Notes under the pieces: model-generated
Databases searched by the model: none
What the model saw: the letters and a program-made list of their open reading frames with translations, nothing else
Told to the model about the DNA's origin: nothing
Virus record (IMG/VR): IMGVR_UViG_3300035204_001773
Location: 45,212-109,211 of that record
Length of the DNA stretch: 64,000 bases
Source: a virus
Direction: 5' to 3' (one strand)
Position numbers and translations under genes: made by a program
Shown here: positions 2,595-48,189 of the stretch, in pieces
Layout: each line of letters begins with the position of its first letter
Position numbering within the stretch: position 1 is the stretch's first letter

Positions 2595-2609
2595 AAACTA
2601 TATTATAAT
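2580..2609 (+). promoter_or_regulatory. sigma70-type promoter for the 2619 gene
   Basis: TTGACA (2580-2585), 18 nt, TATAAT (2604-2609). ATG at 2619. Confidence 0.7.
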
Positions 2610-2618
2610 AATTATATC

Positions 2619-6141: not shown

Positions 6142-6142
6142 T

Positions 6143-13161: not shown

Positions 13162-13169
13162 TTTTTTCC

Positions 13170-14420: not shown

Positions 14421-14421
14421 A

Positions 14422-15087
14422 TTAATCTGTAAGTTTAACTACAAAGTCAGTTTTTATATCTCCGACGGAAGTTTTAAAAGTTAATTCGTCAGAATAATCT
14501 CCCGTAGTAATATTTTCTCTACCCGAGACAATTATGTTCGCGTTGTTCTCTATTTTAATGGGCAGATTTGTGGTTGAAAAATTATCCCCGCCCGAAAAGA
14601 CCCCACTAAAAACGACGAAGGGCAAATTTGCATTATTATTAGCTACATTTATATTAAGCGTACCTGTTTTGGAAAAGGAATCGCCCTTCAATATTGTGTA
14701 GCTTGGCTTGTCCGAAGCAACATAGAAACTAGTAGTAGCTGTACATCCGCTAGTATTTATATAAAAATTGTCAATAACATTCTTTTCTTTTACTCCCACG
14801 TAGCATATAGGTACGCCGTCAATAAAATATTGATAATTTGAATCGTAAATATCTCCAGAAAGAGAAAAAGATTGACTAGGTAAATAAGAATATATATATC
14901 TATTTTCTGGATCTATAATTTTCCCCTTATCAAATGAAAATTCTAACGATCTTCCCGTGCCCTCCCATTCACCAGAAAACCCCAGAGCCCCAGTACCCTC
15001 TATATTGTCAAAAGTAAGGCCTGACGCATAAAAAGATAACCGCTTTGCGCTACCAATTTTTCTATTGTTATTTCCAGAGAATTCCAT
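14422..15087 (-). CDS. beta-rich virion structural protein (hypothetical)
   Basis: 221-aa ORF, Ser/Gly/aromatic-rich, coupled to neighbouring tail genes. Confidence 0.5.
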   Translation of the reverse strand: MEFSGNNNRKIGSAKRLSFYASGLTFDNIEGTGALGFSGEWEGTGRSLEFSFDKGKIIDPENRYIYSYLPSQSFSLSGDIYDSNYQYFIDGVPICYVGVKEKNVIDNFYINTSGCTATTSFYVASDKPSYTILKGDSFSKTGTLNINVANNNANLPFVVFSGVFSGGDNFSTTNLPIKIENNANIIVSGRENITTGDYSDELTFKTSVGDIKTDFVVKLTD

Positions 15088-15088
15088 A

Positions 15089-18511: not shown

Positions 18512-18533
18512 TATTCCTTTTTCCTAGAGCTCT

Positions 18534-20312: not shown

Positions 20313-20313
20313 T

Positions 20314-32900: not shown

Positions 32901-35900
32901 CACCCGGTTTAATTTCTATATCATTCATCTGTTGAGACAACATTTTGGAAAATTGATCAGCCATCTCGGGCGGCAAACCACTAAACGCATTCATTGCGAG
33001 GCGACTTGGGCTAACGGTTACGCTTTTGCCCGTTGCAAGAGCCTTATTGTAAGCCTCTCCCAGACCACCCATAACCTGCCTATGTGTCCGCTTCATCCAT
33101 GCCCTTTTCGAGAATCCGCCCTTCGTTGACGTTTTTGCCTGATCCATCAAGCTTTTGTCAGGAGCAGTATCGCCCAGTCTCTGCCTCATGAATTCATCAG
33201 GAGACATAGTACCCATTCTATGCTCTGCTGCGCCACCCTTTTGGCCGACGCCTGCTTGTTGTTGAGACAACTCCACTTGCGCACCCATGCTTTTCAATAA
33301 GTATTGACTCGCTGCATTCTTTGATGCTTCACCACCCAAGTTTTGCGCTGCCTTGCCACTCTCTAATGCGTGAGTCATTTCATGAACTATTAAACCTCTT
33401 TGCACATTTCGTGCCATTTGACCAGCGCCACCTTTTTGTTTTCCTGCTTTTACAATTTCATCATCAACCACCACCTGATTCTTCGTGGCATCCCACCAGC
33501 CACCCCAGCGTGCTCCACTTGCACCACCGGGTTTGTTAGTCGTATTTTGCTTAGTTATATCCCAATTTTGTTTAACTGCATTAGCGTAATCTTTTTTGAT
33601 ACTTTCCCCAAGAACCCCAGTGGGAGATCCAGTTTTCTTGGCCATATTTTGCTCGTATAGATTACTTAATTTTATTGATTCGAACATGGCGTATCTTTTA
33701 GACATACCACCGACAAGTTTTCCTATCTTACCTTCTGCAAAATAATTAGTAAATAGCTTTCCGTGAAGTTTATTCAAAGCGCCTGCGCCCATACCTTTCA
33801 CCTTGTCTACGATAGGCCCGCCAATTTTTCTAGCACCTTCCGCCATTGACGACTTCCAACTTCTCCACGTATCTTTTATATTAAAGGGCATTTTATACCT
33901 AGAAGCCATGTTCATGGCTTCTTTAATGCTCATGCCAACGCCGCCAAGTCCCGCAGATGTTTTCTTTCCTAAATTAGTAAACCACTTAGCCGTGTTCCTG
34001 ACCCAATTATTTTTAGAATCCTTCTTTACTTGTGCGGCTTTCTTCGGTTTTTTCTGCTTCACCTTTTCTGGTGCGTCTGTTAAAGCGCTCCCCATAAAAT
34101 AAGGAGACAAGCCTGCGTAAAATGCGTTCATAGCTCTCCAACTATGCTCTTCTTCTCCTGCTAGATTAATCGCTTGTCCCCCCATGGGAGTATCCAATAC
34201 CATTTGTTTTCGCGAACCACCAGTGCCAAGGGGTCCACCGCGTGCGCCAAACCATGTACTATGATGACCACTTCTTCTATCTAGAACATTAGCTACGCCG
34301 CCTCGCACGCTTGTGCCACCGGGCAAACTATCAATGAGGCCCCTAGATCTCCCTTTTAATAGATCGTCGTAAAGATCTAGCATGTCAAGTTTTTCTTGGT
34401 TTGTGAATTTGGTACCACCCATTCCAAGCTTGTTCCATATATCCGCTTGGTATACTTGCCCGAAGCTACCCGTGCCCGGAACAAATCCACCCGCTGCGAA
34501 CGACATGGGAACCATTCCCTGCGCGTAAGTTTTTCTTCCGTGGTCTACGCGCAATTTACCTCTATCTTGTAACCATTTTCGTTGATCTTCATGAAGAAAT
34601 CTTCCTGTAGCGGGATCAAACCCAACAGGACGACCTCTTCCAGCGGGCATTAGGCTTGCTCCGCTAAGATTAGAGGGGTCTCCAAGAGTTCCATCAATTT
34701 TAGGGTCACGCCCACCGGTTTGGCCAAACGCCCATATCGCCGTCCTTTCGTCTAGCCCGCCACTGTCACCAAGAGCACCCAACTGGTAGGCAGGTATACC
34801 TGTTTCTAACGAATACAGATAACGATACGCTCTTTTCCAATCCTTGGGGCCATAATATTGTTGTATATATCTTCTAGTTAATTCTCTCTGCGCCCTTGGA
34901 TCTCTTCCTGTTTCTGGATCATTCCTTAAACTTGTAAGATATTCTCTTATTGGGGATAAATTAGCATAAGTATTCCCATCCGAACCCTTGACAGGTTTAT
35001 GAGCACCACCACGACCCATCATTTCTTGCTTTGTCCTAGCTTTAGAAGCGGCGGCTATACCCCCCAATGAGCCAGCGTTGATTCCCCATTTATTTGCTTC
35101 TTCTGACCATTTTTCTTTTGGGTTATTTTTTTGAATGAAAGAGTACATCAAGCGTGTCCACTCTCCGGAGTTTTTAGCTATTCCATTACTCTGTAGCATG
35201 CCATGAAACTCATTAATGGAAGTTCCAGAAGAAACAGATACGCTTGGCTGCGAGGGTGTTCTCAAATGGTATACCTGATTTCCCATTTTTCTAGCTCCTC
35301 GAACAAATTCGCTTCTAGTTCTTCCTCCTTGTTCGGGGATATGCAAAAAGCCGGGGAGATTTTCTTTTGGCTGCCCTAATGTAAAAAATTCGTTTTGCCC
35401 TCGAAACAAACTAAAGTTGCTAAGATTACCTTTTCTGATTTCTTCTTGTTCTGATTTAACTCTGTCAATAAAATCCTTTGTGTTATTCATGCCTACAGCG
35501 CCCATAGGCATGTTCAGAGCGATCTGAGGAGTTAAATTTATACCAGTACTACTTTTGATCCTCTGTTTAACGTTATCATATTTTTGCCAATCGAGGACAT
35601 TGTCTGATGTGAGCTCGGTGTGATTAACAATATCTGGATTTCTAGCAATAGCATCATGCCATTCAGAGTACCACTTTTCTAATTTGTCATATTTTACTTC
35701 TACTTTTCTAAGCCCATCTGTTGAAGGAAGCAAATCAGGAGATGGAGCAAAAACCTCAATTGGAGAGGGGGATCCTCCAGCAGCCAAGCTAGGAACCTTA
35801 TATGTAATTTTTTCTCCGGGGGTATACCCATCAGAAGCTACCGTGTAAGGATTAATTCCCCAAGCCGCTTTTGATCTTTGCTTGTGTGCCTTGCCAGCTT

Positions 35901-38900
35901 TACTAAATTCAGGAGGATTAATAAAAGGTTGACTTATTCCGGGAACACTAACAACGCTTTCAGCTGAGTTATAAGTAACATTCCCAACTCCAGAGATTTT
36001 CATATTTTTTATAGCGCCAGCCCTATATCCCCCCTCTAAAGCTTGCGATCTTTCTATGCTTGCGCTCAGTCCGCCACCACCGGGGACAAATCCATGAGCG
36101 GCTCGCGATTGCTTTTCTCTCAAAGCCTCTATTTCGCTTTCTGTTTGTCTTAGTCTTGCTCTTATTGGCCCCCTGTCTCGTTCATCCGCTGCTTGAAGTT
36201 CATTTTCTATTCGTCTTTTTTGTGCTTGTAATTGACCAAGCTTTTGGTGGGCTTGTAAATTTTCGTCCAATGTTTTAGCGGTTTGAGTGGCAACTCTAGG
36301 TTTTTTAACTCTTTGCCCTATTGAAAATGGAGAATCCTCTCCGTCTCTTTGTTCTCTTGCCGCTTGATCGAATACTCCTTGTAATCCACGAGCATGTGTT
36401 GAGGATATTCCAAATTTTCGCCCCGCGCCGGGTGCTTTAAGCATGTTAGCTATATCTGCTGCACTACCAGCGCCCTCGGTTTCAAAAATATTTTTTAACG
36501 TTCTCTTTCTCTGTTTAGCATCCATTCCTCCCATGGCGGCCATCATCTGTGGATCCATTGCGAGTTGACCTACTTGCATATCTGCATCTCGTTTTGCATC
36601 TTTCAGTTTCTTTTTGTTCGCCTCTCTATCGCCTTCTCTTTCGAATTGATCATACGCATCTTGCGCCCCTTGAACGCCTCTTCTTGCTGCTCCCATATCA
36701 GTAGAAGCGCTCGTTAACGCGGCTTGTGGATCGAAGTTAATTGCAGAAGCTAAATCTTTAGGTAATGACCCTAATCTTCCATCAATAGATTTTAATTGCT
36801 GCAACTGTTGCTTGTCTATAGCACCAGTCATGAATTCTTCATCGAATACATTAGCGACACTTTCTTCTGCTCTCCCAGCTTCACGTCTCATACCAGCGAC
36901 AACTCCGCGTGGAGCCCCTGCGGCTTCCGCTTGATCAGCCATCATGTTAAGCTGATTTGATCTGTCCTTACCCATTTGTTTAATGAAATCTCCTCTAAAT
37001 TTCATCAGATCCGGGAACTCTATCTGTAGTCTTCTTTGTACTTCTTCGGCGGTTTCAACTCCACCCCCTGCTTTCACCTGAGCCTCTTCTCTTCCTCCAA
37101 ACAAACTTCCACCCATCAGTCCCTTCAATCCTCTGAGCATTTCCGCAGTACCTTTTGCTTGTTGCCCTTTAAAATCAGCCCCAGCTTCTTGGGTTTTTTG
37201 CATACGTATTAATCCCTCTAGAAACCCTTCTATATCAGCGGTTTGCTTATCTGGATCTAAAAGTCCATCCATTCCTCCAAGCATCGAAACGTCACGCTTT
37301 CTTTGTCTTTCTTGTTTCTCAAATTCGAAAGCTTGTTTTGCTATATCAATCTGTGCTTGAGTATTTATACTTAATTCTTTAAGTTGTCTTAATACCTTCT
37401 GCCCCTCTTCTCTACTGCTTCTTACTAATCTATTTATTAATTTGGGCCCCAACGCGCTAGTGACGTCAGATCTTTCTGTAAATTTCTTTATAGCATCTGC
37501 GGTTTCTGTTGCGCTTAAATCTTTATTTTTTTCCATCATAGCAGTGAACTCTTGAGAAATTCTTCCTATGTCATCTGCCTGTGATCCCTTTTTCTTTTCT
37601 TGAAGTTTGGTTAGCTCACTTTGAAATTCGGAAAGCTGCTTGCCTCTTGCTCCTCTGGTTGCGTCTTGAGCCTTCGTAAACTGATCATTGCGAATTCCTG
37701 CCGTTTTAACTTGTAAACCAAAAGCGGACGCACCCATGGTGCCCCTTCTCATCATGCCCATGCCGCCCTTTAATCCTTCTATGTCGACCCTTCTTCTCGC
37801 GCCACCTTCAATATCTTTGATTTTTGTAACGAACATTAATGCGTCATTAAAATTTCGTTGAGCTTCCACGAACCCTTGTTTGGCTTGATCAAGAGCTTCT
37901 TTTAATTTTTCTGATTGTTTTCGAGCTTTCTCTCTCGCTGCATTACTTTCGTCATGTTTATCACTATTTTCTTTTTGCGCTTGAATTAATTTATCCATTT
38001 CTTTTGCGAGAATGGTTAACCCGCCCTTGCCTTCTAAATTCTGTATACCTTGCTGCGCGTTCGCATTAAGACTTAGGCCTGCATTTTCCAATATTGATAT
38101 GATTGCACTAGCATCATCGCCAGCGCTTTTAAGGCCCGGGCCTCCGGCTAATTTTGTCATGGCATCTCTATTTGAAAATGCACCTATCGAACTCAATACC
38201 TCCTTTGCATCTTCTTCAGCAGCCTTATTGTCTATCTTTGATCGTTTTGTACCAAAAGTTCCACCAGTTTCATATGGGTTGCCGAAATCCATCATGCCTA
38301 AAGTAAGACCTTCGGCAAGGGTCTTAAGGACTCCCGCATTGCCTTGCTGCTGTCTTTTGGTAAGATTGTCCCCGGCTACTTTCTGATTTCTATCTTCCTC
38401 TAGTCGCTGGCGAGCCTTTTCATAAGCTTCTTTTAATTGGTTTGCGCTTACAGCCATGCCCATGGCCATTCCTGCTTCTTCATCAATAGCGGTAATAGAA
38501 CCCATTAAGTCTAATAATTTCTTATCCAATCTTCGCATCGTTTCGAATGGGGCAGCGCCGTCTTGTTTAGCGGAGTTTAACTGGTCCCACGTAGACATAT
38601 ATTGAGACATGGCGTCATTTATTTCTGTATATTTTTCTTTAGCCGTCTCTGCGTCTTTAGCCATATCTTTCGCGTTCATCGCGATGTCTCGAATCCACGC
38701 GGTTGCTTTGTCTATACCAACGGCTAGAGCAGCCGCTCCGCCGACGACTCTTCCAAAAGTTCCCGGAAGGACAGCAACAATAGCAGAGAAAGAGTTCTGC
38801 ATCCCAACTAATGTATCTGTAACGCCCTTAGCTTCGGGCACAATTTCTCCCAAACTCATTCCTATCTGGGACATCATAAAGGATCTAGATAACTGATCCG

Positions 38901-41900
38901 AAGAAATATCAGAGTCTACCCTTTCTCTTCTAACGTCGGATAAACCCGCCGCTCCTATACCCACTTCTTCTCCAGCACTTCTCATACTTGAGGCGGTCAC
39001 CGTGGTTTTACCAGAAAGATTCGCTTTATCGCCTTCTACTTTTACTAATTCGCTTTCTACCTGCTCTAGTTGTGCCAACGTAACATTATATTCGTCAGAA
39101 CCTTTCTTCATTGTTTTCAAGGTTTTAACTAGAGCCTTCACCTCTTTTTCCATCGTTTTAACAGCTGGTTCTAAACCGCTCAACGGCGAACCGAGAACAC
39201 CTTTAGTTAGGTGTCCTCCGGCACGCACAGCTGCACCCATTTTACCCGACGTAAGAGTGGTTTCTTTTTCTTTTAACCAACGAGCGAATCCACCTTCTTC
39301 GTCATCATCAAGGAAATTTGGAATATAACCAGCCGCAGCTATTCCATAAGTGTTGGGATTTTTGCCTTCTTTTAGAGCTCGACTAACGCCTTGTCCAAGT
39401 CCTTTCTTTTCGTCAATATCGTTACCAACACCAAGGTTCAATGGGTTTGCGGTAATTCTTTTATCTTGCCCCAAGAAAATATGACTCTTCGCTTCTTGTC
39501 TGGAGATGTCTTCTCTAACTGATAAGGCATTTATTTCCCTTTCTTCTGCCTTTGCAACTTGCTCTTTTATACCCGGTGTCCATGCACTTCTTGTAAAATG
39601 TCCATCTGCAAAATTAGGAACATAACCTCGTGCGCCGTGTATTCCTCCAATTCTTTTTACTTCTTGTTCGCTTCTTGGAGAATGATGTTGCCATCCTCCC
39701 GCTGAAATTTTTTGTAATTCTTGGTCCGGACCATTCCAATGTTGTACATCGAAATAGATTGCTTTTTTCATTGCAAGATCTATAAGTCTAGCAACCGCTT
39801 CTTGTCCATTTCTGCCAGCGCCCAACTGCAAGCCAAGCCACCTCCGAGTCTTTTCTCGATTCATTAGGCGTTTCGTGCCATGTTTGGTTTCTCTTAAACC
39901 GCTCGACGCCTCACTTCTACGAGCAAGTTCACCTGCTGTGCCGGGGCTACCATCTGCAGGAGGAATCTCCGGCGCAGAACCGACCTCTTCGTCACCGGGT
40001 GTTAATTCTAACATGGCTCCGCGATGTTCTCCCCATCGTTGTGCGACACCCTCACTTCTACTTAATGAAGCAACTCCGGGTTGAGACTTTGTTCTAACGC
40101 TTTGATCAGCGAGCCACCCCTCAAAAGATCTTAGTGATTCTTCGGGAGTATTTCCTTCTCCGGCTTGTCTAGTTGTTGTTACGGTCTCTTGTTTCCAATC
40201 TGACCAACCCACGTTAGTGTAGGACATATCGGGTCTGCCATCTTCACCATATTGATATTCTCCTTCTTTGTATCCCCGAAAAAGATTTAGGAAGTTTGGT
40301 ATGAATCCTAAGCTCTTCATATTAGCTAAATTTTCTGGCTTAGCTAATTGTAAAATTCTTTCTACATCATTTATATTTGTAATTTTATCAAAGCCCTCAT
40401 CTAAAGTAGGAGCTTCAAAACGATTAAACATACCTTCAATAGCTGCATCTGGTATAGTTTTGCTACCGCCCTTGGCTTTTGTTAGTTCGGCTCTCCTCGC
40501 TGTAATCGCCTTAACAGCTGATATAACTTGCTGTTGTTTTTCGTCTGGTAATTGAGATATATCACTAAAGACTACCGCCTGTTTTTCGTACCCTTTAATA
40601 TCATTCTCATCGAACATATTTAAAGACATTGATCGTTCTCTTGCGGACATGTTTGTCATATCTACAGAAATATCTTTACCTGACTTACCAGCTTCCGCAA
40701 CCCTTTTGTCAAATTTATTTTGAATCTCGCTTCTAACTTGGCCTATTTTATCCCAAATTAATTTAGGTATCCAAGGCTGTTGTTCAGCTTTCTCTTCATC
40801 GTATTCTGGATTTATAACTGCTTTGCCATATTTAGGATGAGTTTGACCTAATCTAGTTCCCGCTGCGGGTGTCTCAAATGAGTCGTCATAAGTCAGTCCC
40901 ATGTCTTTAGTTACTTGATTGACTATGTCATCTCTACTTACGATGAAATCTTTCGGCGCGTTCTCTTTGAGCCAAGTTGATTTACCAACCCCCGGAGCAC
41001 CGACAAGTGTTCTTAATTTTCTCGCAAAGCTCGGGACATGTCCCCTACCAAATCCCATACCGCCCATGTCACCCGCTAATGCGCCCATTAATTCTCTATG
41101 AGCTTCTTGAGAAGACTCGCTTCGCCCATCATTAACGTCTCTCCCGTTAAATTTACTGCCCGGTCCCGCATTTATAAATCCACCTTCCCCAGCATGAGAT
41201 TCTCTTCTTCCTTTCAAATAAGCAGCGGCTTGAAAATGAAATCGCGTCCCGGCCCTTGGATCATAGGTTGCGGTCTTGCCTCCATCAGCACTAAAGGCAA
41301 CCGAATCATTTTTCAAATCTTGTCCTCTTGCCCACTTTTCAAAATTTGGGACAAAACCTCCTGCGCGACCCTTGCCCGTGCCCCCGGCTCGTTTGTCCAC
41401 GCCCCCCATCTGTAAATATTCCGCCTGTTCAGCCTCTGATAGATCACGCATTACTTGCTTCCGAATCGCCGCTTCTTCGTCTTGCTGGCTCATTCCATAA
41501 AGATTCACGCCTTTCCGTCTTAACGTCTGGCGTGCTTTTATCTCAAGTTGGTGAAAATGCTCCCTTCTATTCTTCCTATTTTTCTCGGTTTCTTCTCTTG
41601 TTGGCTGGATATTACCTTGTTCATCTATCGCGCCCAAACTCCTAAACTCAGGTTCATTACCCGTAAAGACAGCCTCTATAAAGCTGTGCCCCTTTGCTCC
41701 TATGCCAAAAATATTATCCCCACTAATTTTTGGACTATATTCATTAAAGAATTCTTTAAGGCTGTTAATAGAATTCTTGATCTCGTCTTCGTTCAACAAG
41801 TTGCCAAGGTTTCTTGCGCTCATCTTTTGGCTTGAGGGACGCTTGTTATCTTGTTTCGGAATAAATGATTTAATGGTTCTTTTAAGTCTTGCCCATAGAG

Positions 41901-44900
41901 TTTCTTCTTTTCTTATGAGATCTTTGTCAACCTCATTGCCCGTTGGCGTTGTGCCTTTAAATCTTTCAAAGAAATTCGGAATATTACCGGCATATTTCGC
42001 TACTAATTTTTTCTTTCCAATCCGCGCGATATGATCTTTATGCAGATTATTCGCTCGCACAAGAGCTTGATCATATGCGGGATCCCCTGATTTACCCGTT
42101 TGTAAAGCACTGATTTCAGACGAATTCAAACCCATTTCATAAAGATAATGAGGCTCTTTCGATTTAAGGTCATCTGAATCAAAATCAGTAGCTTTGATCT
42201 CTAGCCCCTGCATAGGCATCCCCGGGGTAAACATACCTCCAAATTCTTCTTGTATCCTTTCGTTAGATATATCTATTGGTTCTTCGCCAGCTGTATAAGG
42301 TTTTCCCGAGACTGTATCTTGTGGTGGCGTTCTTCCTCCTACCGTCGTCTTTTGCGCGGTAGTCATTCCATGTATCATGCCTTCCCATAATGCTCCAGCA
42401 AGATCCCGTTTTGTCCCAACTGGTAACTTCATGCCGCCTACAGCGAATTTGCTTTGCAACTTGCCAGTTACTTGTGCTAACTGATTCTTAAAGTCTGGAT
42501 CTTGAAGAGCAGCCTCTTCATCACCTCCGTATGATTGCTTAACCGTCATCCCGGGTCCAGCTTCGTCTATAAACCAAGTTCCCATATTTGGTAGGACGGT
42601 CCCAGAAACTTGTTGCTCTACTTTATCATAGAACCTATCTCTTATTCCTGAATCAAATACTTTCGGATCAAGTCCATAACGCTGAACTCTCGATGATTTG
42701 TGTCTAGAAGATATTTCCGAAGGCTCTTCTGCTGATCCACCAGACTGTCCCGGCGCTCTTGTGCCCATCGTGAGAACTGGGGTATAATGAGGCGCGCGTT
42801 CTCCTTTAGATAAATTTATTACCGTGCCATCTGCTAACGTAATTGTTTTGTCAGCAGCAAAATTAGGCACGTTCCCCCACGCGGCCATAGCTTGTTTATC
42901 TCCCATTGCGCCGAGTGCCGAGCCCTGAGCGCCACTCTTGTCAATATGATCTCTAACCCAACTAAGTTTTCTTTTTGGTCCCGTTCCCCTATTATCGCTT
43001 TCGTGAACGTAAGTTCCTAAGCTCGGCGCGTACCTCCATAAGGCGTTTGCGTCGTAATGATCTATTTGGCTTTCCTTCTTCTGCGCAGACCTTAAAGAAG
43101 TCGATAGCCCCTTAGTAGTACGCATTGAGCTAGCGAAACTTGGAACAAATCCTCCAGCAACGCGTTGACCAGTTGTTGTGTCGATCATGTCAGGATCAGT
43201 AACCACATGCCCCTTACCCATCTCTCGAGCTTTCTTTAATAATCTTACGTGCTCTTGGGATACGCTTTTCCCCTCGCGGCTACGATCTATTACTTTCTTA
43301 TCTGGCCCGAGGAGAAGATGATAGTTTCCTTCTGTTCTATCTTCGAAGTTGGGAACAAAACCTCCTGCTACTCTTAAACGAAGCCCTCTGGCGTGACTAA
43401 TAGCATCCTCGGGGCTCTTAAAAGTTTGACCTGTCGGGTTGTATTTCCATCCTCGAGTTGTTAAAGGGCTATCATAAAGAGACTGAACATCATTCATTTC
43501 AGTCATTCCCTCAAATGGCTCCTGTCCTTTAGGCCAATGAGGCTTGGGATGTCCTGCGTCCATCAAATCTCGAACCGTTAGCCTTGACAACCGAGAAACT
43601 TCCTCATCGTACTCGGGGTCGCCGGGATTCGCCGGTAACATAAGATAGCTAGGTCCACCATCGAATCCTCCATCCGGCTTATGATGTTTTTTCCATCCTG
43701 ATGGTCGTGCAAAATTTGGAATAAAACCTGAAGCCCTCTTACTCCTTTCTATTCCGCCGGGATTTGCTCCACGGTTAGCGAAAGGAGTTTCAAAAGTCTG
43801 CACTCCCCGAACCCCAGTCATATTTAATCTTTCAATTTCTTCTATATTAGCCTTGGCGTCATCATACAAAACTAACTCGGGACTTTTTCCTGCTTCTTTG
43901 GCCTTTTTGCTCATTCTAGCCATTAGCAAGGTTTTCTTTTGAGCAGCATTTAAATAACGCCATTGCCTACTTCCTTGCCCCTCTGGCCATCCATCTTCGC
44001 CTAATTTTTCAAACTGGCCATGAAATCTACCGCCTTGAATAAAATCTTTTTTTCTAACAAGGCCTACTTCAAGACCTGTCTCAGGATCAATTGTACTAAA
44101 GTCTGGATTATCCATAACCTTCATGTCGTTGAACATGGATCCGCTAGTTATAACCCTATCAACATTTACCCCTTGACTTTCGAGTTGTCTCCTGATTACC
44201 GCGTTTGTTCCCTCTCCTTGAGTAATGGCTTGACGTGACCCTGCTCCTCTAGCAGTCGCTACAGTGACTGGTGCTTGTGATGCCTTATAATCTTCTCCTC
44301 TACTTGTCAGGGTTGACTTCTTTACCGACCAAGGGAATGCAAAAGATCTACTTGGCATATCGGCGGGATATGTGCCAAGATTTTCATCATAGTCTTCGAG
44401 ATTAACTACTTCACCGTCTTCTAAATCTCTGGGCCTTACATAGTTAGGAACAACACGTCTTCCTCTATTTGAGGAAAGAAAATTAGGTACGTTACCGCGG
44501 AAAACATTATACGTTTTTCCCTTGTGTCTTTTTAAATCCGGTCTTGCTTTTTCTACTTCATCATAGAAAGCGGTATAATCTATGGGCGCATCTAACGTTC
44601 CCGCTAATTGCTCATGGCTTCTTGCGTCATCCCTGTGAGATGTTGATAGTCTAGATTCCCGTTGACCTCGCACTTCTTCTTGAGATTTGTCAAGACCAAT
44701 TAGCCTCTTGCTCATTCCAAGCACGTTACCGAAGAAATCATTATTAAGACTTTCCCCTCCATGAATTATTGCGAACTTATCCATCGCGTCGAATTGACTC
44801 TGGTTAGTTACCAGAACCCCTTTTCCTACGTTGGGTATTTTCTTATCAAGAGCTTTGTTGCCTGATTTCAAACCGGCGAAAGTAGATTTCCCTGAGCCAG

Positions 44901-47900
44901 CTGGCCCCATGACAGTACTCACGGGCTTGCCAGTTTGAAAAGCGTCATAAACCAATTCTTCCCACGAATCTCTGTCCATTTTTGATCTATCGAAATCGAG
45001 AACACCTCTAGCAAAATTTGGAATCATTCCTGAAGCTTTCAACGCCATACTGCTCGAATCAAACGCTGGAACATGCCCCATGTACTTCGGTAGAGCATTT
45101 ATGGAACTAGCTGTTGTCGCTAGTGCTTTTCTAGACTTTCGCTTTTCCTCTTCCTGTCTTCTTGTAAATAAAGCGTGAGAATGCTCCCATTGCTCTTTAA
45201 ATTGCCCCTCGTTAATAAATGAATTTATAGTATCTTTACTTATTTCGCCCCCCTCGTCTCCTGCTGTTCGAGAAAATTCGGAACCATGCAATAAAGCACC
45301 GATAGTTTTATCTACCCTTTCTTTATCCGCTGCCCCCATGTCCCCAGAGAAATACGAGTCTGGATCTAAGCCTTCTAATTCTAACCCAGCGACTTTTGCT
45401 ATTGGATTATTTTTTCTTTTAATATTCTCTTTAGATGATAAACCAAGACCTCCGTGTTTCGGGTCTCCACGCCTTATGCCAAACCAATCTTTAGACCCAG
45501 CGGTTTGAACTGTATTAACTATTCTAGAACCAAACTCGGTTGCTTCAAATAATTTATCAGCCATACTATTCATATTACCCTGACTCGTACTATTTTTGGC
45601 ATCTGCTAAAGGAGTTTTCACACCAAAGGTATCAGGGTGCCTAAGCTTGTGATATCCCCCATCTCGCCCTTCCATATAGTCCCATCTAGTAGAACTAGAT
45701 TTAGCAAAATCAGTATCATCATAAACTAAAGCATCCACAGACCCCTCGAACGCTCTACCAACTGCTTGAGCCATTTGCCCTGTTCCAACAACTTTATTTA
45801 CATATTTTTTGATATCAGCCTCGTCAGCTGGCGGTTTAAAATATTGATTTGCATATCTTGATACTTCTGCTCCAATTTGATTATTGATTGACTCTTGCGC
45901 CTCAGAACTATCCGGTGCTCTTTTCGCTGACAAAGCAGGAAAAGAAGCCTTTAAAGAAACCCCATAAGCTCCGAAGGTCTGTTGTGCTTTATCATTAAAT
46001 TTTACATTATAAACCCCCGGAGTTGGTGTGCGCTTACCCCCACCTTTATCAGGCAAGAGTATGGAAGCCATGTGATGAGCATTGACTACTCCTCCGGGTA
46101 AAATATCTGCTTGACCGCTTGCTCTTTTGAGTTGCTTTTTAATTGGGTCTAATTTTTCATTAGTTAAATCTAAATAAGTTCTTGGAATTTTTAATTTCTC
46201 TTTCTCTGCTGCCATAAAATTAGGCACACTGCCAACTGCTGTAAATTTATTAAACTCACTCTTCTTAACTTTCTCAATTGTTTTTTCTAAAACTTTTTGT
46301 ACCTGCGGTTTATACTTTGGTAAAATAGCTGAATCTCCACCCTTAAGCCCCTTGGGTTTAACGCCGTATCTCTGAAACAGTTCTTTAGCAGTAAACTCCT
46401 GCTCACTAGAATTCATTATTACGCGTTTACCATCGATCGTGCCCCTAGACATATGCGCTCTAGTTCCAGAGGCTGCCCCCATAGCTCTGGCCATCTTTGT
46501 TTCTTCTTTATATGGGTCATAAAAGAAGTTAGGAATATTGCCCGAGGCATTCCCGCCGCCGCCTTTCTTCCCGGGGACATCCCAACCACCGCCCTTCATA
46601 GGGAACATAACTCCTCCGCCAAAACTTCCAGTAGAATGCATTGTCTTAGCTAACATAGCAACAATTTTAGCTTGATTCGTCATTTCTCTATTCTCTGCTC
46701 TTATTTTTTCTAAAAGATCTCTATGAACATCTGCAAGAGATTTTGTACCTCGCATAATTTCTTTTAACATCCTCGGCTCTTCAGCAAGCAGTGAATTCAA
46801 TTGGGTTTGAATCCTCTGTTGGTCCGCCATGTGCTTACCTCCCCCGCTAATCGTTTTAAAAGCGTCTACGGCATAAATCCTAAGTTTATCAAATAATTTA
46901 AACAAAGCCATAATACCCACGGCAAGACCCGGACCTTTTAAAAATTCTCCGAGACCTTTCGACATTCCAGAAGAAAGCTTAGATCCCAGACTCTCTCCCG
47001 AAGCCCCAAGGTCGGTTGATTCTAAAACTGTATTTATGCCCGAAAGAACTCTTTTTATAGCGGGGGCAAGAGCATCTTCTCCCAGCTTAGAACCGGCTTG
47101 TTTTAAATTAGCCATGGTTCTATTAATTAAAGTGCTAAAGCTTTGGTTCAATTTTTCATTTCTCGCAATAGCTTCATCGGTAGCAGAGGTGGCAATACCT
47201 AAAGCGTTTTCATATATTGAAAATTCTTTTGTTAAATCACTCAAAGAAGCTTTTAAAATATTAATTTGGAATACGCCACCAACTAATTCAGCAATCTGAG
47301 CTTGTTGCGATTGCGCTAGGCTATCGTACTGCCTCGCTAAATTTTGCAGCACTTGCATAAGAGGCATCATTTGCCCGCTTTGCTTTTTGGTTTGCACGCC
47401 AATTTCTTCAAGTGCCTCTAAGACTCTAGGCCTTTGTATTCTTGTGAAAATAGTTTTGAACGCGTTACCAATAACATTACCACCACGAGCAGTAACTTGT
47501 TGAGTGGCCGTTATAACTGCAAGTAGTTCTTCAAATTTTACTCCCGCTCCAGCAGCCGTGCTTCCTACTCTTCGGATTGCTTCAGCAAGGTCACCAGAAC
47601 TCACGGCAAAAGCCTGATCAACCTGAGCCATCTTACTAATTATTTCTGTAGAATTTAGAGCCGCCCTTGAATAGCCGTTCATAGCAGCAGTAATCGCGTT
47701 TACAGCAGCGGCGGCATCTAATCCAGAAATTCTTGTTAGTATAAGAGCGTCTTGGGTCCTTTTAAGGGTTTCTTGCATCCCAAGACCTTGTCTTGCGAAT
47801 TCTCCAGCAGCAGTAGCCACTGTTTGGAAACTTTGCGCTGTGTTTCTGGCTACATCAAATAATGAATTTCCAAATTTAGTAAGTTGGTTTTGGCTAGTAT

Positions 47901-48189
47901 TTAAAATTGTATTAATTTCTGTTAAAGATTTTTCAACCTCCACAGCGGAACTTACCATTTGTCTAAACGCATCTTGAACACCCATAATAAGACCAGCGGA
48001 TGCGCCAAAGGCAAGTACACGAGCATTAGAAGCGGCGAGAGATTTTTCAAATTCACCCAGATCCCCCTTGATGCGACCAAGAGGAGCGCCATCGAAATTT
48101 ACAGACACAGGTACGCGACTTAGCTTCTTAAGCCTCTTTTCGAGAGGGCTTAAATCACCATGTACCTTGACTGTTACTGATCCGGGCAT
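23956..48189 (-). CDS. giant (8077 aa) tape measure protein with embedded enzyme cassettes (polyvalent TMP)
   Basis: N-terminal TP901-type TMP core (EVEKSLTEINTIL...AAGEFARQG...ALILTRISGLDA...FAVSSGDLAEAIRRVG...RGGNVIGNAFKTIFTRI). Canonical position after tube and chaperone genes. Two hydrophobic blocks, long coiled coils, 17x GxxPNF and internal enzyme motifs. Confidence 0.92.
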   Translation of the reverse strand: MPGSVTVKVHGDLSPLEKRLKKLSRVPVSVNFDGAPLGRIKGDLGEFEKSLAASNARVLAFGASAGLIMGVQDAFRQMVSSAVEVEKSLTEINTILNTSQNQLTKFGNSLFDVARNTAQSFQTVATAAGEFARQGLGMQETLKRTQDALILTRISGLDAAAAVNAITAAMNGYSRAALNSTEIISKMAQVDQAFAVSSGDLAEAIRRVGSTAAGAGVKFEELLAVITATQQVTARGGNVIGNAFKTIFTRIQRPRVLEALEEIGVQTKKQSGQMMPLMQVLQNLARQYDSLAQSQQAQIAELVGGVFQINILKASLSDLTKEFSIYENALGIATSATDEAIARNEKLNQSFSTLINRTMANLKQAGSKLGEDALAPAIKRVLSGINTVLESTDLGASGESLGSKLSSGMSKGLGEFLKGPGLAVGIMALFKLFDKLRIYAVDAFKTISGGGKHMADQQRIQTQLNSLLAEEPRMLKEIMRGTKSLADVHRDLLEKIRAENREMTNQAKIVAMLAKTMHSTGSFGGGVMFPMKGGGWDVPGKKGGGGNASGNIPNFFYDPYKEETKMARAMGAASGTRAHMSRGTIDGKRVIMNSSEQEFTAKELFQRYGVKPKGLKGGDSAILPKYKPQVQKVLEKTIEKVKKSEFNKFTAVGSVPNFMAAEKEKLKIPRTYLDLTNEKLDPIKKQLKRASGQADILPGGVVNAHHMASILLPDKGGGKRTPTPGVYNVKFNDKAQQTFGAYGVSLKASFPALSAKRAPDSSEAQESINNQIGAEVSRYANQYFKPPADEADIKKYVNKVVGTGQMAQAVGRAFEGSVDALVYDDTDFAKSSSTRWDYMEGRDGGYHKLRHPDTFGVKTPLADAKNSTSQGNMNSMADKLFEATEFGSRIVNTVQTAGSKDWFGIRRGDPKHGGLGLSSKENIKRKNNPIAKVAGLELEGLDPDSYFSGDMGAADKERVDKTIGALLHGSEFSRTAGDEGGEISKDTINSFINEGQFKEQWEHSHALFTRRQEEEKRKSRKALATTASSINALPKYMGHVPAFDSSSMALKASGMIPNFARGVLDFDRSKMDRDSWEELVYDAFQTGKPVSTVMGPAGSGKSTFAGLKSGNKALDKKIPNVGKGVLVTNQSQFDAMDKFAIIHGGESLNNDFFGNVLGMSKRLIGLDKSQEEVRGQRESRLSTSHRDDARSHEQLAGTLDAPIDYTAFYDEVEKARPDLKRHKGKTYNVFRGNVPNFLSSNRGRRVVPNYVRPRDLEDGEVVNLEDYDENLGTYPADMPSRSFAFPWSVKKSTLTSRGEDYKASQAPVTVATARGAGSRQAITQGEGTNAVIRRQLESQGVNVDRVITSGSMFNDMKVMDNPDFSTIDPETGLEVGLVRKKDFIQGGRFHGQFEKLGEDGWPEGQGSRQWRYLNAAQKKTLLMARMSKKAKEAGKSPELVLYDDAKANIEEIERLNMTGVRGVQTFETPFANRGANPGGIERSKRASGFIPNFARPSGWKKHHKPDGGFDGGPSYLMLPANPGDPEYDEEVSRLSRLTVRDLMDAGHPKPHWPKGQEPFEGMTEMNDVQSLYDSPLTTRGWKYNPTGQTFKSPEDAISHARGLRLRVAGGFVPNFEDRTEGNYHLLLGPDKKVIDRSREGKSVSQEHVRLLKKAREMGKGHVVTDPDMIDTTTGQRVAGGFVPSFASSMRTTKGLSTSLRSAQKKESQIDHYDANALWRYAPSLGTYVHESDNRGTGPKRKLSWVRDHIDKSGAQGSALGAMGDKQAMAAWGNVPNFAADKTITLADGTVINLSKGERAPHYTPVLTMGTRAPGQSGGSAEEPSEISSRHKSSRVQRYGLDPKVFDSGIRDRFYDKVEQQVSGTVLPNMGTWFIDEAGPGMTVKQSYGGDEEAALQDPDFKNQLAQVTGKLQSKFAVGGMKLPVGTKRDLAGALWEGMIHGMTTAQKTTVGGRTPPQDTVSGKPYTAGEEPIDISNERIQEEFGGMFTPGMPMQGLEIKATDFDSDDLKSKEPHYLYEMGLNSSEISALQTGKSGDPAYDQALVRANNLHKDHIARIGKKKLVAKYAGNIPNFFERFKGTTPTGNEVDKDLIRKEETLWARLKRTIKSFIPKQDNKRPSSQKMSARNLGNLLNEDEIKNSINSLKEFFNEYSPKISGDNIFGIGAKGHSFIEAVFTGNEPEFRSLGAIDEQGNIQPTREETEKNRKNRREHFHQLEIKARQTLRRKGVNLYGMSQQDEEAAIRKQVMRDLSEAEQAEYLQMGGVDKRAGGTGKGRAGGFVPNFEKWARGQDLKNDSVAFSADGGKTATYDPRAGTRFHFQAAAYLKGRRESHAGEGGFINAGPGSKFNGRDVNDGRSESSQEAHRELMGALAGDMGGMGFGRGHVPSFARKLRTLVGAPGVGKSTWLKENAPKDFIVSRDDIVNQVTKDMGLTYDDSFETPAAGTRLGQTHPKYGKAVINPEYDEEKAEQQPWIPKLIWDKIGQVRSEIQNKFDKRVAEAGKSGKDISVDMTNMSARERSMSLNMFDENDIKGYEKQAVVFSDISQLPDEKQQQVISAVKAITARRAELTKAKGGSKTIPDAAIEGMFNRFEAPTLDEGFDKITNINDVERILQLAKPENLANMKSLGFIPNFLNLFRGYKEGEYQYGEDGRPDMSYTNVGWSDWKQETVTTTRQAGEGNTPEESLRSFEGWLADQSVRTKSQPGVASLSRSEGVAQRWGEHRGAMLELTPGDEEVGSAPEIPPADGSPGTAGELARRSEASSGLRETKHGTKRLMNREKTRRWLGLQLGAGRNGQEAVARLIDLAMKKAIYFDVQHWNGPDQELQKISAGGWQHHSPRSEQEVKRIGGIHGARGYVPNFADGHFTRSAWTPGIKEQVAKAEEREINALSVREDISRQEAKSHIFLGQDKRITANPLNLGVGNDIDEKKGLGQGVSRALKEGKNPNTYGIAAAGYIPNFLDDDEEGGFARWLKEKETTLTSGKMGAAVRAGGHLTKGVLGSPLSGLEPAVKTMEKEVKALVKTLKTMKKGSDEYNVTLAQLEQVESELVKVEGDKANLSGKTTVTASSMRSAGEEVGIGAAGLSDVRRERVDSDISSDQLSRSFMMSQIGMSLGEIVPEAKGVTDTLVGMQNSFSAIVAVLPGTFGRVVGGAAALAVGIDKATAWIRDIAMNAKDMAKDAETAKEKYTEINDAMSQYMSTWDQLNSAKQDGAAPFETMRRLDKKLLDLMGSITAIDEEAGMAMGMAVSANQLKEAYEKARQRLEEDRNQKVAGDNLTKRQQQGNAGVLKTLAEGLTLGMMDFGNPYETGGTFGTKRSKIDNKAAEEDAKEVLSSIGAFSNRDAMTKLAGGPGLKSAGDDASAIISILENAGLSLNANAQQGIQNLEGKGGLTILAKEMDKLIQAQKENSDKHDESNAAREKARKQSEKLKEALDQAKQGFVEAQRNFNDALMFVTKIKDIEGGARRRVDIEGLKGGMGMMRRGTMGASAFGLQVKTAGIRNDQFTKAQDATRGARGKQLSEFQSELTKLQEKKKGSQADDIGRISQEFTAMMEKNKDLSATETADAIKKFTERSDVTSALGPKLINRLVRSSREEGQKVLRQLKELSINTQAQIDIAKQAFEFEKQERQRKRDVSMLGGMDGLLDPDKQTADIEGFLEGLIRMQKTQEAGADFKGQQAKGTAEMLRGLKGLMGGSLFGGREEAQVKAGGGVETAEEVQRRLQIEFPDLMKFRGDFIKQMGKDRSNQLNMMADQAEAAGAPRGVVAGMRREAGRAEESVANVFDEEFMTGAIDKQQLQQLKSIDGRLGSLPKDLASAINFDPQAALTSASTDMGAARRGVQGAQDAYDQFEREGDREANKKKLKDAKRDADMQVGQLAMDPQMMAAMGGMDAKQRKRTLKNIFETEGAGSAADIANMLKAPGAGRKFGISSTHARGLQGVFDQAAREQRDGEDSPFSIGQRVKKPRVATQTAKTLDENLQAHQKLGQLQAQKRRIENELQAADERDRGPIRARLRQTESEIEALREKQSRAAHGFVPGGGGLSASIERSQALEGGYRAGAIKNMKISGVGNVTYNSAESVVSVPGISQPFINPPEFSKAGKAHKQRSKAAWGINPYTVASDGYTPGEKITYKVPSLAAGGSPSPIEVFAPSPDLLPSTDGLRKVEVKYDKLEKWYSEWHDAIARNPDIVNHTELTSDNVLDWQKYDNVKQRIKSSTGINLTPQIALNMPMGAVGMNNTKDFIDRVKSEQEEIRKGNLSNFSLFRGQNEFFTLGQPKENLPGFLHIPEQGGRTRSEFVRGARKMGNQVYHLRTPSQPSVSVSSGTSINEFHGMLQSNGIAKNSGEWTRLMYSFIQKNNPKEKWSEEANKWGINAGSLGGIAAASKARTKQEMMGRGGAHKPVKGSDGNTYANLSPIREYLTSLRNDPETGRDPRAQRELTRRYIQQYYGPKDWKRAYRYLYSLETGIPAYQLGALGDSGGLDERTAIWAFGQTGGRDPKIDGTLGDPSNLSGASLMPAGRGRPVGFDPATGRFLHEDQRKWLQDRGKLRVDHGRKTYAQGMVPMSFAAGGFVPGTGSFGQVYQADIWNKLGMGGTKFTNQEKLDMLDLYDDLLKGRSRGLIDSLPGGTSVRGGVANVLDRRSGHHSTWFGARGGPLGTGGSRKQMVLDTPMGGQAINLAGEEEHSWRAMNAFYAGLSPYFMGSALTDAPEKVKQKKPKKAAQVKKDSKNNWVRNTAKWFTNLGKKTSAGLGGVGMSIKEAMNMASRYKMPFNIKDTWRSWKSSMAEGARKIGGPIVDKVKGMGAGALNKLHGKLFTNYFAEGKIGKLVGGMSKRYAMFESIKLSNLYEQNMAKKTGSPTGVLGESIKKDYANAVKQNWDITKQNTTNKPGGASGARWGGWWDATKNQVVVDDEIVKAGKQKGGAGQMARNVQRGLIVHEMTHALESGKAAQNLGGEASKNAASQYLLKSMGAQVELSQQQAGVGQKGGAAEHRMGTMSPDEFMRQRLGDTAPDKSLMDQAKTSTKGGFSKRAWMKRTHRQVMGGLGEAYNKALATGKSVTVSPSRLAMNAFSGLPPEMADQFSKMLSQQMNDIEIKPGDKRFLNKDGSFSRQKLFKMVKGQAGYQRMIKEIGNRVQLGSIDEEYKTYSTQRMAERMGAKGNWVMAKDFLKVAVPHLLREKNVHPSQLKERFMNFAREKFGRVPKTTALSIHGEKNMGTIQADSNKPALKMSEKFFNSRAGRMLTGLADLRKSPLYRGVKFTGGQISDLSKKFTNLSRSPILKALRGYKQDFSRGKRFTGKMKFDEIKNQKEQIKSRNRMTRIGASVGSAESLAKSIKSQVSKATGSVKTNFWNQVGAFKHGYTGGAKGAFVATDSALRTEGLGKGAAASVQHLKSALGQGQQFAKNLVNMQKSPILNKIIEGHAGAKGMLGDFKHGFKSGNLRKFNIAMPGAPEVKASGAQKLGATFKNLSTSLVDGIGRGKDNFKTWSKSKLNSMKARFNQTELVKGYRFGAGQPTGRQHGGFQGKVEHSRMRKFGAGIKGGQDLVKKLQHQIATGLVDAGETVKSSPVGKAVGSVHKAAASFFDFNRSPLVSKGKKFRGDFSRARRFFGKLSGPQRNSLMAMPEFKSRSLATKLGIKTIQAGDFLKNLFGTPKQAAQLQAATSGTKIDTSGLDKKKPTLAERLRKPYDNFKRGRRFMQKISPEERQNQRAQMKTRDAYTKAGMKSVLAMDYMKNLKKKLGSIPGRLKEAGGKSFADIKKGWKAGALNLDKPERMKFSKEGSGYRGRLVRNTIPMEQLKKGPAANNMSRSEWLARRARIGAGVTKEWLKNLPSRFGGLMNKHLQKSPVMEGFKIGRQGGRGEEMRRLFPDARTGLPGGKREGMFGALGRMTGRFASQLPLVAKGENFWTGKRSLVPSWITEGAREQAMTPKERKAHERKEAAKDRRLARRALQDPNVLKDQLGLTDDQIKLLQKKGLLKKLGSARSFDKVIASLAEQTKSAKKGHGKNRLRIRELSAMNKAANFSVGRSANDGAGGKWSGSVRAPSSRVSSLAAILTDRSMSRAGGGPSARGNVVELSQQNVERMKALDPDFKQEGGKARAKLETNARSSDPKVAGKAKFALANRGYKAGAMGLKGVGKGAMGFGNPHDVNIRKAVAQFEKTRARIEKKVGNGSMSYSKGQNMLKAAWTKHVEGGKNTPLDKVAALPPDKSGRSGAQKLGRLMMAKAGPDSGLLEKQLQAIEKDPGRRSADATKQRNAQLGRLQADALKTEQNMKVKADQELLARRLDAASKDLAKGIEGRRDGKVKTAMKTIGKLSHKIGLYRPEQGGLMSRTLFGNNYKQMWQMGKQKWGFGGGKFGGGTIGRDLRGGAVGIGAGLATGWIGKYLMQNENKTIAKIGEGIATYGGYGVGTYMIMRGLEKEAQQRAAKELAEGAIEQSVKSGSKKSAVKKAADFFTDASDKGLRGAAYKKAGEGLDKVAKKGGIWKSVKASKSGQWTKGMAKKFGGSSAIRGLGVGIVGQMIGSHFVNKAYAKEMEGLQGRMEKGGVDGADATVEMHQLQLQKDRVATGTRLGIDILAMGPALLAGGPVGAAIWVAMTAATLADHFRRQKDMKADEAGAKINAAIARAGEKDHGIRQQLASALWDEVLTQPGSQNRFGLSLNFGEGENAALIYDAEKAASTQKLMSNLIQTGTTASADSSALIDMEKELLRISPEEMRNMSDRLEHYTGKSGKELAAMEPSERAEYIKNNADLAWYDKLSSLGMGDDPEGFAQRTAALFAQQAEMRKASGRFASLEELDSGKLPEATAKRNKILSEMKDIPGLPDEVKMMFKVGEEMNKLDMREEATKAQFKHLEREQMGQSWYEGIDKTMMPGRMQSNIDAQNEVAGRKRDLKAIAEQSRAGRMGGKYHKAMQEGNLVDAEEMLKRGGANEAAIKAWREKMKKMPAMKEKIEARETQLVSQQYVDKNTGKTIKKTQLYKAADGKTYYMSGGRRVEAITRGSFVQDLSATGAIKVEEGDDGESIVRDHRGNILARGSGAKLMDQLHKNIFTGKEGKGDSRLTRKELSEVEIERKMDAKKYGTQGNQRLGVISRAGQTKDMGQMLSMDIQGNAEMIRRTKDPILKRKLQDSQRKTMRKKMLWSIQNAAQEFKEAPNNPPWVKQAAAARFAKIAGNQVAFAQRFGIDFKIGNMKQMMIDDWGGGDRNAITAENWINTEEALEHSLGISQQGFTYGKASGHALDYVRGKYQSARGEKKEKYRDMLEDQKKRASDNMAKSFARQQVAQQKLRALEIRGQGLDSSQAVPDTLLQSLGLSQYAGQKMSMAKVKSALRAERNRHSDMVQAESVRGGKASIDRSGVDVSLADLSMAGAGGFAGGTLLENPQLMTEFGLGGGQSVDPLTGQPGKPSTLFEAAGIDPLMAASPYGQRFKGVALQMLAGGQEAAQLQQAMKSTNDPAMQKRYAKELEKIKLKNQKLKAALEASKQYWQKTLVSDLTVGPGAGPDKAFLADAVTRFGKDLTPEQKTQAAGALFNTGPEGIAQAQRIAGEIRDQITQKRVGDYFNQYENTQAFGNQGKTVGQKKRADDTKLFGQLMVGTGMEMEKLAGGTSVGYEDDPDNLAAMKMFQLMKDANIPPKDFLFNMAKQTGMSEEDMQTPAFRKWLNTTSSAYAEEWQRQETATGVGTKGFSQSGFNKAVGNARDRIEGYVVREGVGSRGVGVKGRDSKGELGGTRKNSFFRDGGTVKVGKGDQASEWKLDPETGEWMKLLTIPGKEEKQWRYVDPSEVSEFQGQVYGEIAQMDPTAGKSGQVLDDALARMSNAELEQLANLKMAKTVLDEERRRRGVKGGQNLAKGFIPNFARGSGSAGKHRGFIPNFSSQLEEAKDREITALMGRGYSKSDAEGSVYVAEHPAIKSNNLRIQGIAAKGYVPNFGVGVFNRIDEPQGPDQGISRARSEGANVNTYGSRTGGVPNFSSGRAAGFVPNFEAATQQINMAATSFGEEISKAAESLSANLEGRSRKDEIEQIRNIGGDSNQTANINVNIDGTVQAIPNAIAQAVIDWSKGNILKGGGYFPPNRTS
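24238..24645 (-). repeat. C-terminal cluster of five G-x-[IV]-P-N-F repeats in the TMP
   Basis: KGFIPNF, RGFIPNF, KGYVPNF, TGGVPNF and AGFVPNF within about 135 aa. Confidence 0.9.
39310..46551 (-). repeat. dispersed peptide repeat G-x-[IV]-P-N-F, main cluster (12 exact copies plus PAF, PNY and 2 PSF variants)
   Basis: Copies near 46525, 46220, 45065 (PAF), 45015, 44480, 44440 (PNY), 43712, 43345, 43135 (PSF), 42860, 41972, 41342, 41027 (PSF), 40292, 39611 and 39314. Confidence 0.9.

Follow-up and report, generated by a model that had tools for sequence, protein, structure and literature searches.

A putative Pnkp-type HAD phosphatase cassette in the giant tape-measure protein of an uncultured phage

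Results

Cassette B resembles the 3'-phosphatase domain of T4 Pnkp

We analysed a 64,000-nucleotide stretch (bases 45212-109211, hereafter the window) of the virus record IMGVR_UViG_3300035204_001773, a linear sequence of 109,211 bp estimated by CheckV to be 64% complete. The window contains a giant open reading frame (ORF), P0001 (window 23956..48189, minus strand), which runs uninterrupted for 8077 amino acids (aa) and encodes a tape-measure-type polyprotein holding all of the cassettes described below; positions of features within it are given in window coordinates on the same strand. Our best overall explanation, to which we assign a probability of about 0.5, is that one of these cassettes, B (aa 1247-1493, 43711..44451), is a 3'-phosphatase resembling that of polynucleotide kinase-phosphatase (PNKP), carried by the tape measure as an autonomous cargo module. 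On this reading B would be an aspartyl-phosphatase of the HAD (DxDxT) superfamily, Mg-dependent and catalytically intact, sharing the architecture of the 3'-phosphatase domain in T4 polynucleotide kinase-phosphatase (Pnkp), and would most likely strip 3'-phosphate or 2',3'-cyclic phosphate from RNA or DNA ends. It would travel in a family of giant marine-phage tape measures, usually without a kinase, with the window protein and its closest relative also holding a cassette resembling polynucleotide kinase (PNK), here called K, and a second P-loop cassette of kinase-like fold, A.

The peptides quoted in the original prediction, the Walker A sequence TVMGPAGSGKST of cassette A and NLEDYDENL, VTVATARG and LVLYDDAKANIE of cassette B, were all located in the 8077-aa minus-strand ORF. 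In B, motif I (NLEDYDENL) lies at 44377-44403, motif II (VTVATARG) at 44245-44268 and motif IV (LVLYDDAKANIE) at 43840-43875. The predicted catalytic residues are D1266 (44392-44394) and D1268 (44386-44388) in motif I, T1312-A-R1314 (44248-44256) in motif II, K1419 (43933-43935) in motif III and D1443-D1444 (43858-43863) in motif IV. Conservation was assessed in an 18-sequence alignment of homologous cassettes, in which 17 sequences cover each scored column (cassette numbering). For motif I, D20 and E23 were found in 17/17 sequences and D22 in 16/17; the T66-A67-R68 of motif II was invariant (17/17), motif III K173 was present in 16/17, and in motif IV D197 and the nearby N202 were present in 17/17 and D198 in 16/17. 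Pairwise identity among the B cassettes is just 28-47%. Since near-invariance falls precisely on the HAD catalytic positions, in agreement with the predicted fold, the motifs go beyond chance, bearing out the proposal that B is a HAD cassette with all four motifs. The family consensus reads FYDFDETL ... ILTAR ... NSAEKK ... LIDDAxxNI, with the fifth residue of motif I being T in 12 of 17 cassettes, N in 3, and H and V in one each. A divergent B-type cassette in the contig L014 (L014:10629-11351) has a canonical motif I, DLDGTI, and IATAR at motif II, with D-N in place of D-D at motif IV.

An AlphaFold2 model of B built from 13 sequences (predicted local distance difference test, pLDDT, 76.6; predicted template modelling score, pTM, 0.74) has the strand and helix order of the HAD core, with motifs II and IV following strands E62-66 and E192-197. 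The model was searched against 48,161 PDB chains using VIA-align, a structural search independent of Foldseek. The best match was the T4 Pnkp 3'-phosphatase, 5uj0_B (Z 11.7, root-mean-square deviation 3.3 Å, 135/142 residues aligned), followed by 1ltq_A, also T4 Pnkp (Z 11.2, residues 154-298), and 4xrp_A, the Pnkp1 of the Pnkp1/Rnl/Hen1 RNA-repair complex (Z 10.7, 133 residues aligned on chain residues 171-309). All remaining HADs had Z values of 8.2 or less, the lower-ranked neighbours including 5'-nucleotidases, deoxyribonucleotidases, acid phosphatases and GmhB, and nearly all rows at Z 6.3 and above were HAD enzymes. In the superposition with T4 Pnkp (aligned ranges 12..221 vs 157..298), D20 of B falls on Asp165. 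In T4 Pnkp, Asp165 accepts the phosphoryl group and Asp167 serves as the acid/base; contacts to the phosphate are made by Ser211 and Lys258, and Mg is bound by Asp278 (PMC3592404). The spacing from the motif I nucleophile Asp to the motif II Ser/Thr, taken from the T4 pseT sequence, is 46 residues in both proteins. T4 PseT and B also have in common the S/T-x-R pattern (S211-G-R213 in T4) and an h-h-h-D-D pattern, with the T-A-R of B matching the T4 Arg (R213), which we take to be essential.

Foldseek gave a similar picture at lower significance, the weak top rows against the PDB being HAD enzymes, with probabilities of 0.90 for 1ltq and 0.84 for 5uj0. The Foldseek list against BFVD was dominated by phage proteins annotated as 'polynucleotide kinase/phosphatase' or 'PNKP phosphatase domain', with probabilities of ~1.0. 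The best two BFVD matches, A0A218MMX7 (1025 aa) and A0A218ML07_2 (1475 aa), come from uncultured viruses; both are long and uncharacterised, and may be further cargo-bearing polyproteins. The assignment of B as a HAD-fold domain, of T4 Pnkp type at the level of fold and active site, is well supported by the predicted model, and its nearest structural neighbours suggest that the substrate may be a polynucleotide. As no similarity to T4 Pnkp is detectable at the sequence level, B would stand as a new family by sequence, Pnkp-like in fold and active site.

B is a module of tape-measure ORFs

The first 660 residues of P0001 form a tape-measure N-terminus, matching PHROG tape-measure families down to E 8.9e-55 (phrog_4211). 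The tape-measure N-terminal domain itself (aa 114-301, 47287..47850) matches PF10145, PhageMin_Tail, at E 2e-29, above the cut-off, in agreement with the original prediction that the cassettes lie inside a tape-measure protein. Twenty copies of the motif [VI]-P-[NS]-[FY], mostly G-x-[VI]-P-N-F (hereafter PNF motifs), divide aa 552-2960 and the C-terminus of P0001 into cassettes. The flanking [VI]PN[FY] motifs define the borders of B, to which a HAD / DxDxT acylphosphatase fold was assigned, and of cassette A (aa 1056-1239, 44473..45024), a P-loop NTPase with a kinase-like fold. The Walker A motif of A, found by motif search of the ORF, lies at aa 1092-1103 (44881-44916), close to the earlier estimate of about 44882-44908; the borders first given for the two cassettes together, 43790-45005, proved slightly narrow compared with 43711-45024. 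Between A and B is a linker (44440..44490) with the boundary motifs GNVPNF (aa 1234-1237) and VVPNY (aa 1247-1250), just 13 residues apart and resembling an empty slot.

A locus search with the tape-measure N-terminus showed that at least 499 IMG/VR contigs code for a related N-terminus, and among 80 loci fetched from these the ORFs were mostly ~2000 aa long with 0-10 [VI]-P-[NS]-[FY]-type motifs. An exhaustive phmmer search of 1.84 billion representative proteins with A+B as query gave 11 matches. A word-indexed homologue search yielded no match among candidates of giant length and, among shorter ones, P0002 only, a 3836-aa TARA Oceans protein with PF10145 and PF13671. A tblastn search of 50,697 phage records with A+B as query found nothing. 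Further B cassettes came from scans of IMG/VR, in the contigs L014, L044, L060 and L083-L087; here a locus search with a two-sequence B alignment yielded matches, while the window B alone gave none and the L060 B retrieved only itself. The ORFs of L083-L087 range from 3656 to >4878 aa, with up to 24 PNF motifs, so that the count among relatives spans 0 to 24. In L083 (5933-20566) and L087 (5963-20593) the tape-measure ORFs, with 24 PNF-type motifs each, reach 4878 and 4877 aa without closing, and so this phage is not alone in having the giant, cassette-rich form.

Every B homologue found lies within a tape-measure ORF or in a fragment bounded by a PNF motif, and the B cassette always begins just past one G-x-[VI]-P-N-F motif and stops at the next. 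A word-indexed search with the B profile at near length gave no match, and no free-standing homologue was found. The B family has so far been seen only as tape-measure cargo, in uncultured phages of environmental metagenomes. Its members differ in size: an insertion of ~55 aa (aa 1356-1411), beta-rich in the model and at the position of a HAD C2-type cap, is common to the window B and P0002 only, and minimal relatives of ~150 aa (P0009, L084-L086) are essentially without a cap.

Cassettes A and K, and the question of a kinase partner

Cassette A has GPAGSGKST, with R122 and R125 (cassette numbering) forming an R-x-x-R that resembles a kinase LID and lies in helix 115-126 of the model (pLDDT 72.4). 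Six sequences have in common the Walker A motif, two Asp residues close to the N-terminus (D10 and D12) and the arginines R122 and R125, all four residues being invariant; for the arginines, invariance was scored in 4 sequences. The Foldseek top matches were nucleoside monophosphate (NMP) kinases (E 1.4e-3, probability 0.99). In VIA-align the best Z was 6.5, inside the tool's stated background and tied among guanylate, uridine, adenylate and dephospho-CoA kinases, zeta toxin, sulfotransferases and GTPases, with the bacterial polynucleotide kinase entries 4gp6 and 4mde at Z 5.4 only. Pfam gave no match of A to AAA_33, and other families reached the Walker A alone, at E 0.05 or worse; hhalign of the A profile against T4 PseT and against cassette K aligned the P-loop alone, and the ESM Atlas gave scores below 0.9 to generic AAA_30/AAA_19 fragments. 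Cassette A is a P-loop NTPase and probably a kinase, with a generic kinase-like fold at background scores, so that this part of the original prediction is weak; the identification of A as a PNK lacks an AAA_33/PNK signal.

Another P-loop cassette, K (aa 2385-2634, 40288..41037), is situated 890 aa downstream of B in P0001, outside the coordinates originally considered. K is an AAA_33 / polynucleotide-kinase-like cassette, matching AAA_33 in Pfam at E 8e-9 (36.3 bits vs a cut-off of 27), and the PHROG families 'polynucleotide kinase' and 'RNA ligase' match it across the P-loop region. Its closest relatives in cultured phages are annotated as polynucleotide kinase, one of them adjoining RNA ligase A. 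BLASTP aligned K with residues 2-36 of T4 PseT, from the P-loop through R-D-D, at E 2e-5, and tblastn of T4 PseT over the whole record gave K as the sole match. TIGR01663, the bifunctional polynucleotide phosphatase/kinase model, matched at E 1.9e-4, below its cut-off. By sequence, K rather than A is the PNK-like kinase of P0001 and the better candidate for a 5'-kinase partner of B.

The arrangement of these cassettes varies among relatives. The order in P0002, the nearest relative, is B (aa 1135), K (aa 1472) and A (aa 2598), with A and B 1200 aa apart and K next but one to B. In the fragment P0006 the order of the window is reversed, B preceding A. Among 12 long tape-measure ORFs with B, A or K occurs only in the window ORF and P0002, and 10 of the 12 are without any true Walker A motif. 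A adjoins B in two of the four contexts where its neighbours are visible (A then B in the window, B then A in P0006), which hints at linkage only weakly. B carries no PNK (AAA_33-type) kinase domain fused at its N-terminal side. A+B is therefore not a conserved pair: of the two it is B that is widespread, and the P-loop cassette beside it is no constant partner.

Search for an RNA ligase and neighbouring genes

The 109-kb record was searched with PF09414, PF09511, PF01139 and PF01068 (Rnl2, Rnl1, RtcB and ATP-dependent DNA ligase), and none was found in this 64% of a genome, a negative qualified for PF09511 by a control that was silent in all 14 control genomes. Similarly, tblastn of T4 RnlA over the record gave no match, and a regular-expression scan of the giant ORF for the ligase motif K-x-D-G gave chance-like matches only. 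The cassette after B was considered as a ligase and ruled out, being too short.

The giant ORF contains a single HExxH zincin-like motif (LIVHEMTHALE, aa 4936, 33370-33384), a candidate processing protease, in a part without a Pfam match. Upstream of the tape-measure gene, the minus strand encodes a 2104-aa protein with Calx-beta and Ig-like domains (52078-58392). At the start of the window (13-7324, plus strand) are a DNA polymerase III alpha fragment (finger and HHH domains) and then two NAD-dependent sugar epimerase/dehydratases and glycosyltransferases. In the upstream part of the same record, outside the window, ARAGORN detected a phage-encoded transfer-messenger RNA at 16002-16402, with a tag ending ...AALAA, and four tRNAs (Leu-taa, Val-tac, Arg-tct and Gly-gcc) within record positions 13030-21769.

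Discussion

The original prediction is supported in part. Structure favours reading B as a PNKP-type HAD, with the T4 Pnkp and Pnkp1 entries 5uj0, 1ltq and 4xrp as the best matches; sequence profiles give it no HAD or PNK3P match. Several further observations weigh against a PNKP-like 3'-phosphatase. The window copy has DYDEN in motif I, whose fifth residue, N, is atypical, neither T nor V. No HAD family in Pfam matches B at E up to 10, seven family members have no HAD or PNK3P match in Pfam at E up to 1, NCBIfam and PHROGs gave no match to B, and PF08645 was absent from the record at E up to 1. Searches of PDB sequences with B, as with A, found nothing significant, the B profile reaching MDP-1 only, at E 1.9. 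Using hhalign, the B profile did not match T4 PseT in the phosphatase domain, and Foldseek found no PDB entry for B at E 0.001 or better. As the profile searches are empty, the assignment rests on the motifs and on a model predicted from 13 sequences. T4 Pnkp also hydrolyses 3'-mononucleotides, and fold similarity leaves the substrate of B unfixed. In 10 of the 12 long relatives B occurs alone, and by itself it cannot make ends ready for an ATP-dependent ligase; the ligase searches of the record were negative. Nine further genes near the tape-measure gene gave no PHROG match, leaving the tail context without independent confirmation.

We give a low but appreciable probability to B being a HAD phosphatase for small phosphomonoesters, whether 3'- or 5'-nucleotides, a nucleotide-derived defence signal, or a sugar or lipid phosphate met in crossing the envelope. 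Most HAD enzymes work on small molecules, B occurs mostly without a kinase and without a detectable ligase, nucleotidases, acid phosphatases and GmhB are among its lower-ranked neighbours, and the 55-aa insert of the window copy at the C2-type cap position could shape a small-substrate pocket. However, its three top neighbours are all polynucleotide 3'-phosphatases, ~3 Z units over every small-molecule HAD; the near-capless minimal members (~150 aa) suit macromolecular substrates, and the T-x-R of motif II is kept, like S211-G-R213 of T4 Pnkp. It is very improbable that the cassettes are inactive fillers that lengthen the tape measure and the tail, with enzyme motifs persisting as relics: the catalytic residues are the most conserved columns at just 28-47% identity, compact globular folds are predicted for A and B, and K is above its Pfam cut-off. 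What speaks for fillers is that tape-measure length sets tail length, that cassette number varies (0 to 24 PNF motifs among relatives), and that motif I of the window copy departs from DxDxT.

The proposal that A supplies the 5'-OH polynucleotide kinase of a PNKP-like pair, with B as its phosphatase, is decidedly doubtful. The tandem order on which it was originally based is not kept, A and B being separated in P0002 and reversed in P0006, and ten long B carriers are without Walker A. The Walker A motif of A, its invariant R122/R125 LID-like R-x-x-R and D10/D12, the NMP kinases among its Foldseek top matches (E ~1e-3, probability 0.99) and its direct adjacency to B in two of four visible contexts are all compatible with such a pair. 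Set against these are a best VIA-align Z of 6.5 shared by many P-loop folds, with 4gp6/4mde at only 5.4, Pfam E values above 0.05, hhalign alignments of the P-loop only and ESM Atlas scores below 0.9.

The PNKP-like 3'-phosphatase reading of B invites comparison with known systems. B shares with T4 Pnkp (1ltq, 5uj0) a phage origin and a HAD/DxDxT fold, the alignment spanning almost the entire 142-residue domain (Z 11.7). The active-site residues also agree, namely the nucleophile and acid/base Asp, S/T-x-R in motif II, Lys and DD, with 46 residues from motif I to motif II in each. B has no detectable sequence homology to T4 Pnkp, however, and has D-x-D-E-[TN] instead of D-x-D-G-T in motif I; it is unfused to a PNK kinase domain, and is a PNF-bounded tape-measure cassette rather than a separate early gene. 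A further difference from T4 is that no rnlA-like ligase was found in this record (64% complete). B is of the same HAD subtype as the polynucleotide 3'-phosphatase of bacterial Pnkp1 (4xrp, Z 10.7), whereas Pnkp1 is cellular, operon-encoded and kinase-fused, and works with a ligase and Hen1, a context absent around B. Muralytic motifs are embedded in the tape-measure proteins of mycobacteriophages and lactococcal phages, which likewise have an enzymatic module inside the tape measure that acts at infection; there the target is the cell wall, while the modules here are P-loop kinases and a phosphatase of the type acting on nucleic-acid ends. The polyvalent proteins of phages and conjugative elements combine many effector domains in a single giant polypeptide, which is proposed to enter together with the DNA and to be cleaved into its parts (Iyer et al. 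2017, PMC5512222). P0001 is similarly a many-domain giant, with a HExxH zincin motif later in the ORF; it differs in being a tape-measure protein, and in having its cassettes marked off by a short G-x-[VI]-P-N-F motif. The terms 'tape measure', 'polynucleotide kinase' and 'P-loop kinase' do not occur in the full text of PMC5512222, where 'HAD' is just the everyday word 'had'. That paper and a jumbo-phage survey (PMC7824862) cover injected multidomain effectors and phage RNA repair, and neither describes this combination. In our searches of the literature we met no account of a tape-measure protein with PNKP or HAD modules.

With B, K and A in one protein, P0001 would have the parts for full end healing, namely 3'-phosphate removal and 5'-OH phosphorylation, as separate shuffled modules. 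Since a tape-measure protein exits the virion before the DNA, the activities of the cassettes could reach the host before phage genes are expressed. Delivery with the virion and action before gene expression are plausible given how tape measures are ejected; release of the cassettes, their arrival in the cytoplasm and a biological target, tRNA healing included, are further steps that we infer. An unlikely but specific proposal is that the tape measure is the vehicle for a ready-made end-processing kit, in which B, K and A, freed after ejection and active ahead of any phage gene expression, would heal tRNA or mRNA cut by abortive-infection nucleases, or B alone, the usual situation among relatives, would strip 3'-phosphate or cyclic-phosphate ends needed by host repair or signalling. 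This would be a virion-borne counter-defence of a new kind.

The simple picture of a tandem kinase and phosphatase is thus corrected to one of a widespread phosphatase, with the adjoining P-loop cassette not its fixed partner, and B would define a very divergent Pnkp-like HAD phosphatase family missed by current profile libraries. T4 Pnkp and Rnl1 are the textbook phage answer to anticodon nucleases, and this answer needs prior expression. If our reading is true, a PNKP-type phosphatase in the tape measure, joined in two phages by a PNK-like kinase, would mean that end repair or end editing can be injected ready-made.

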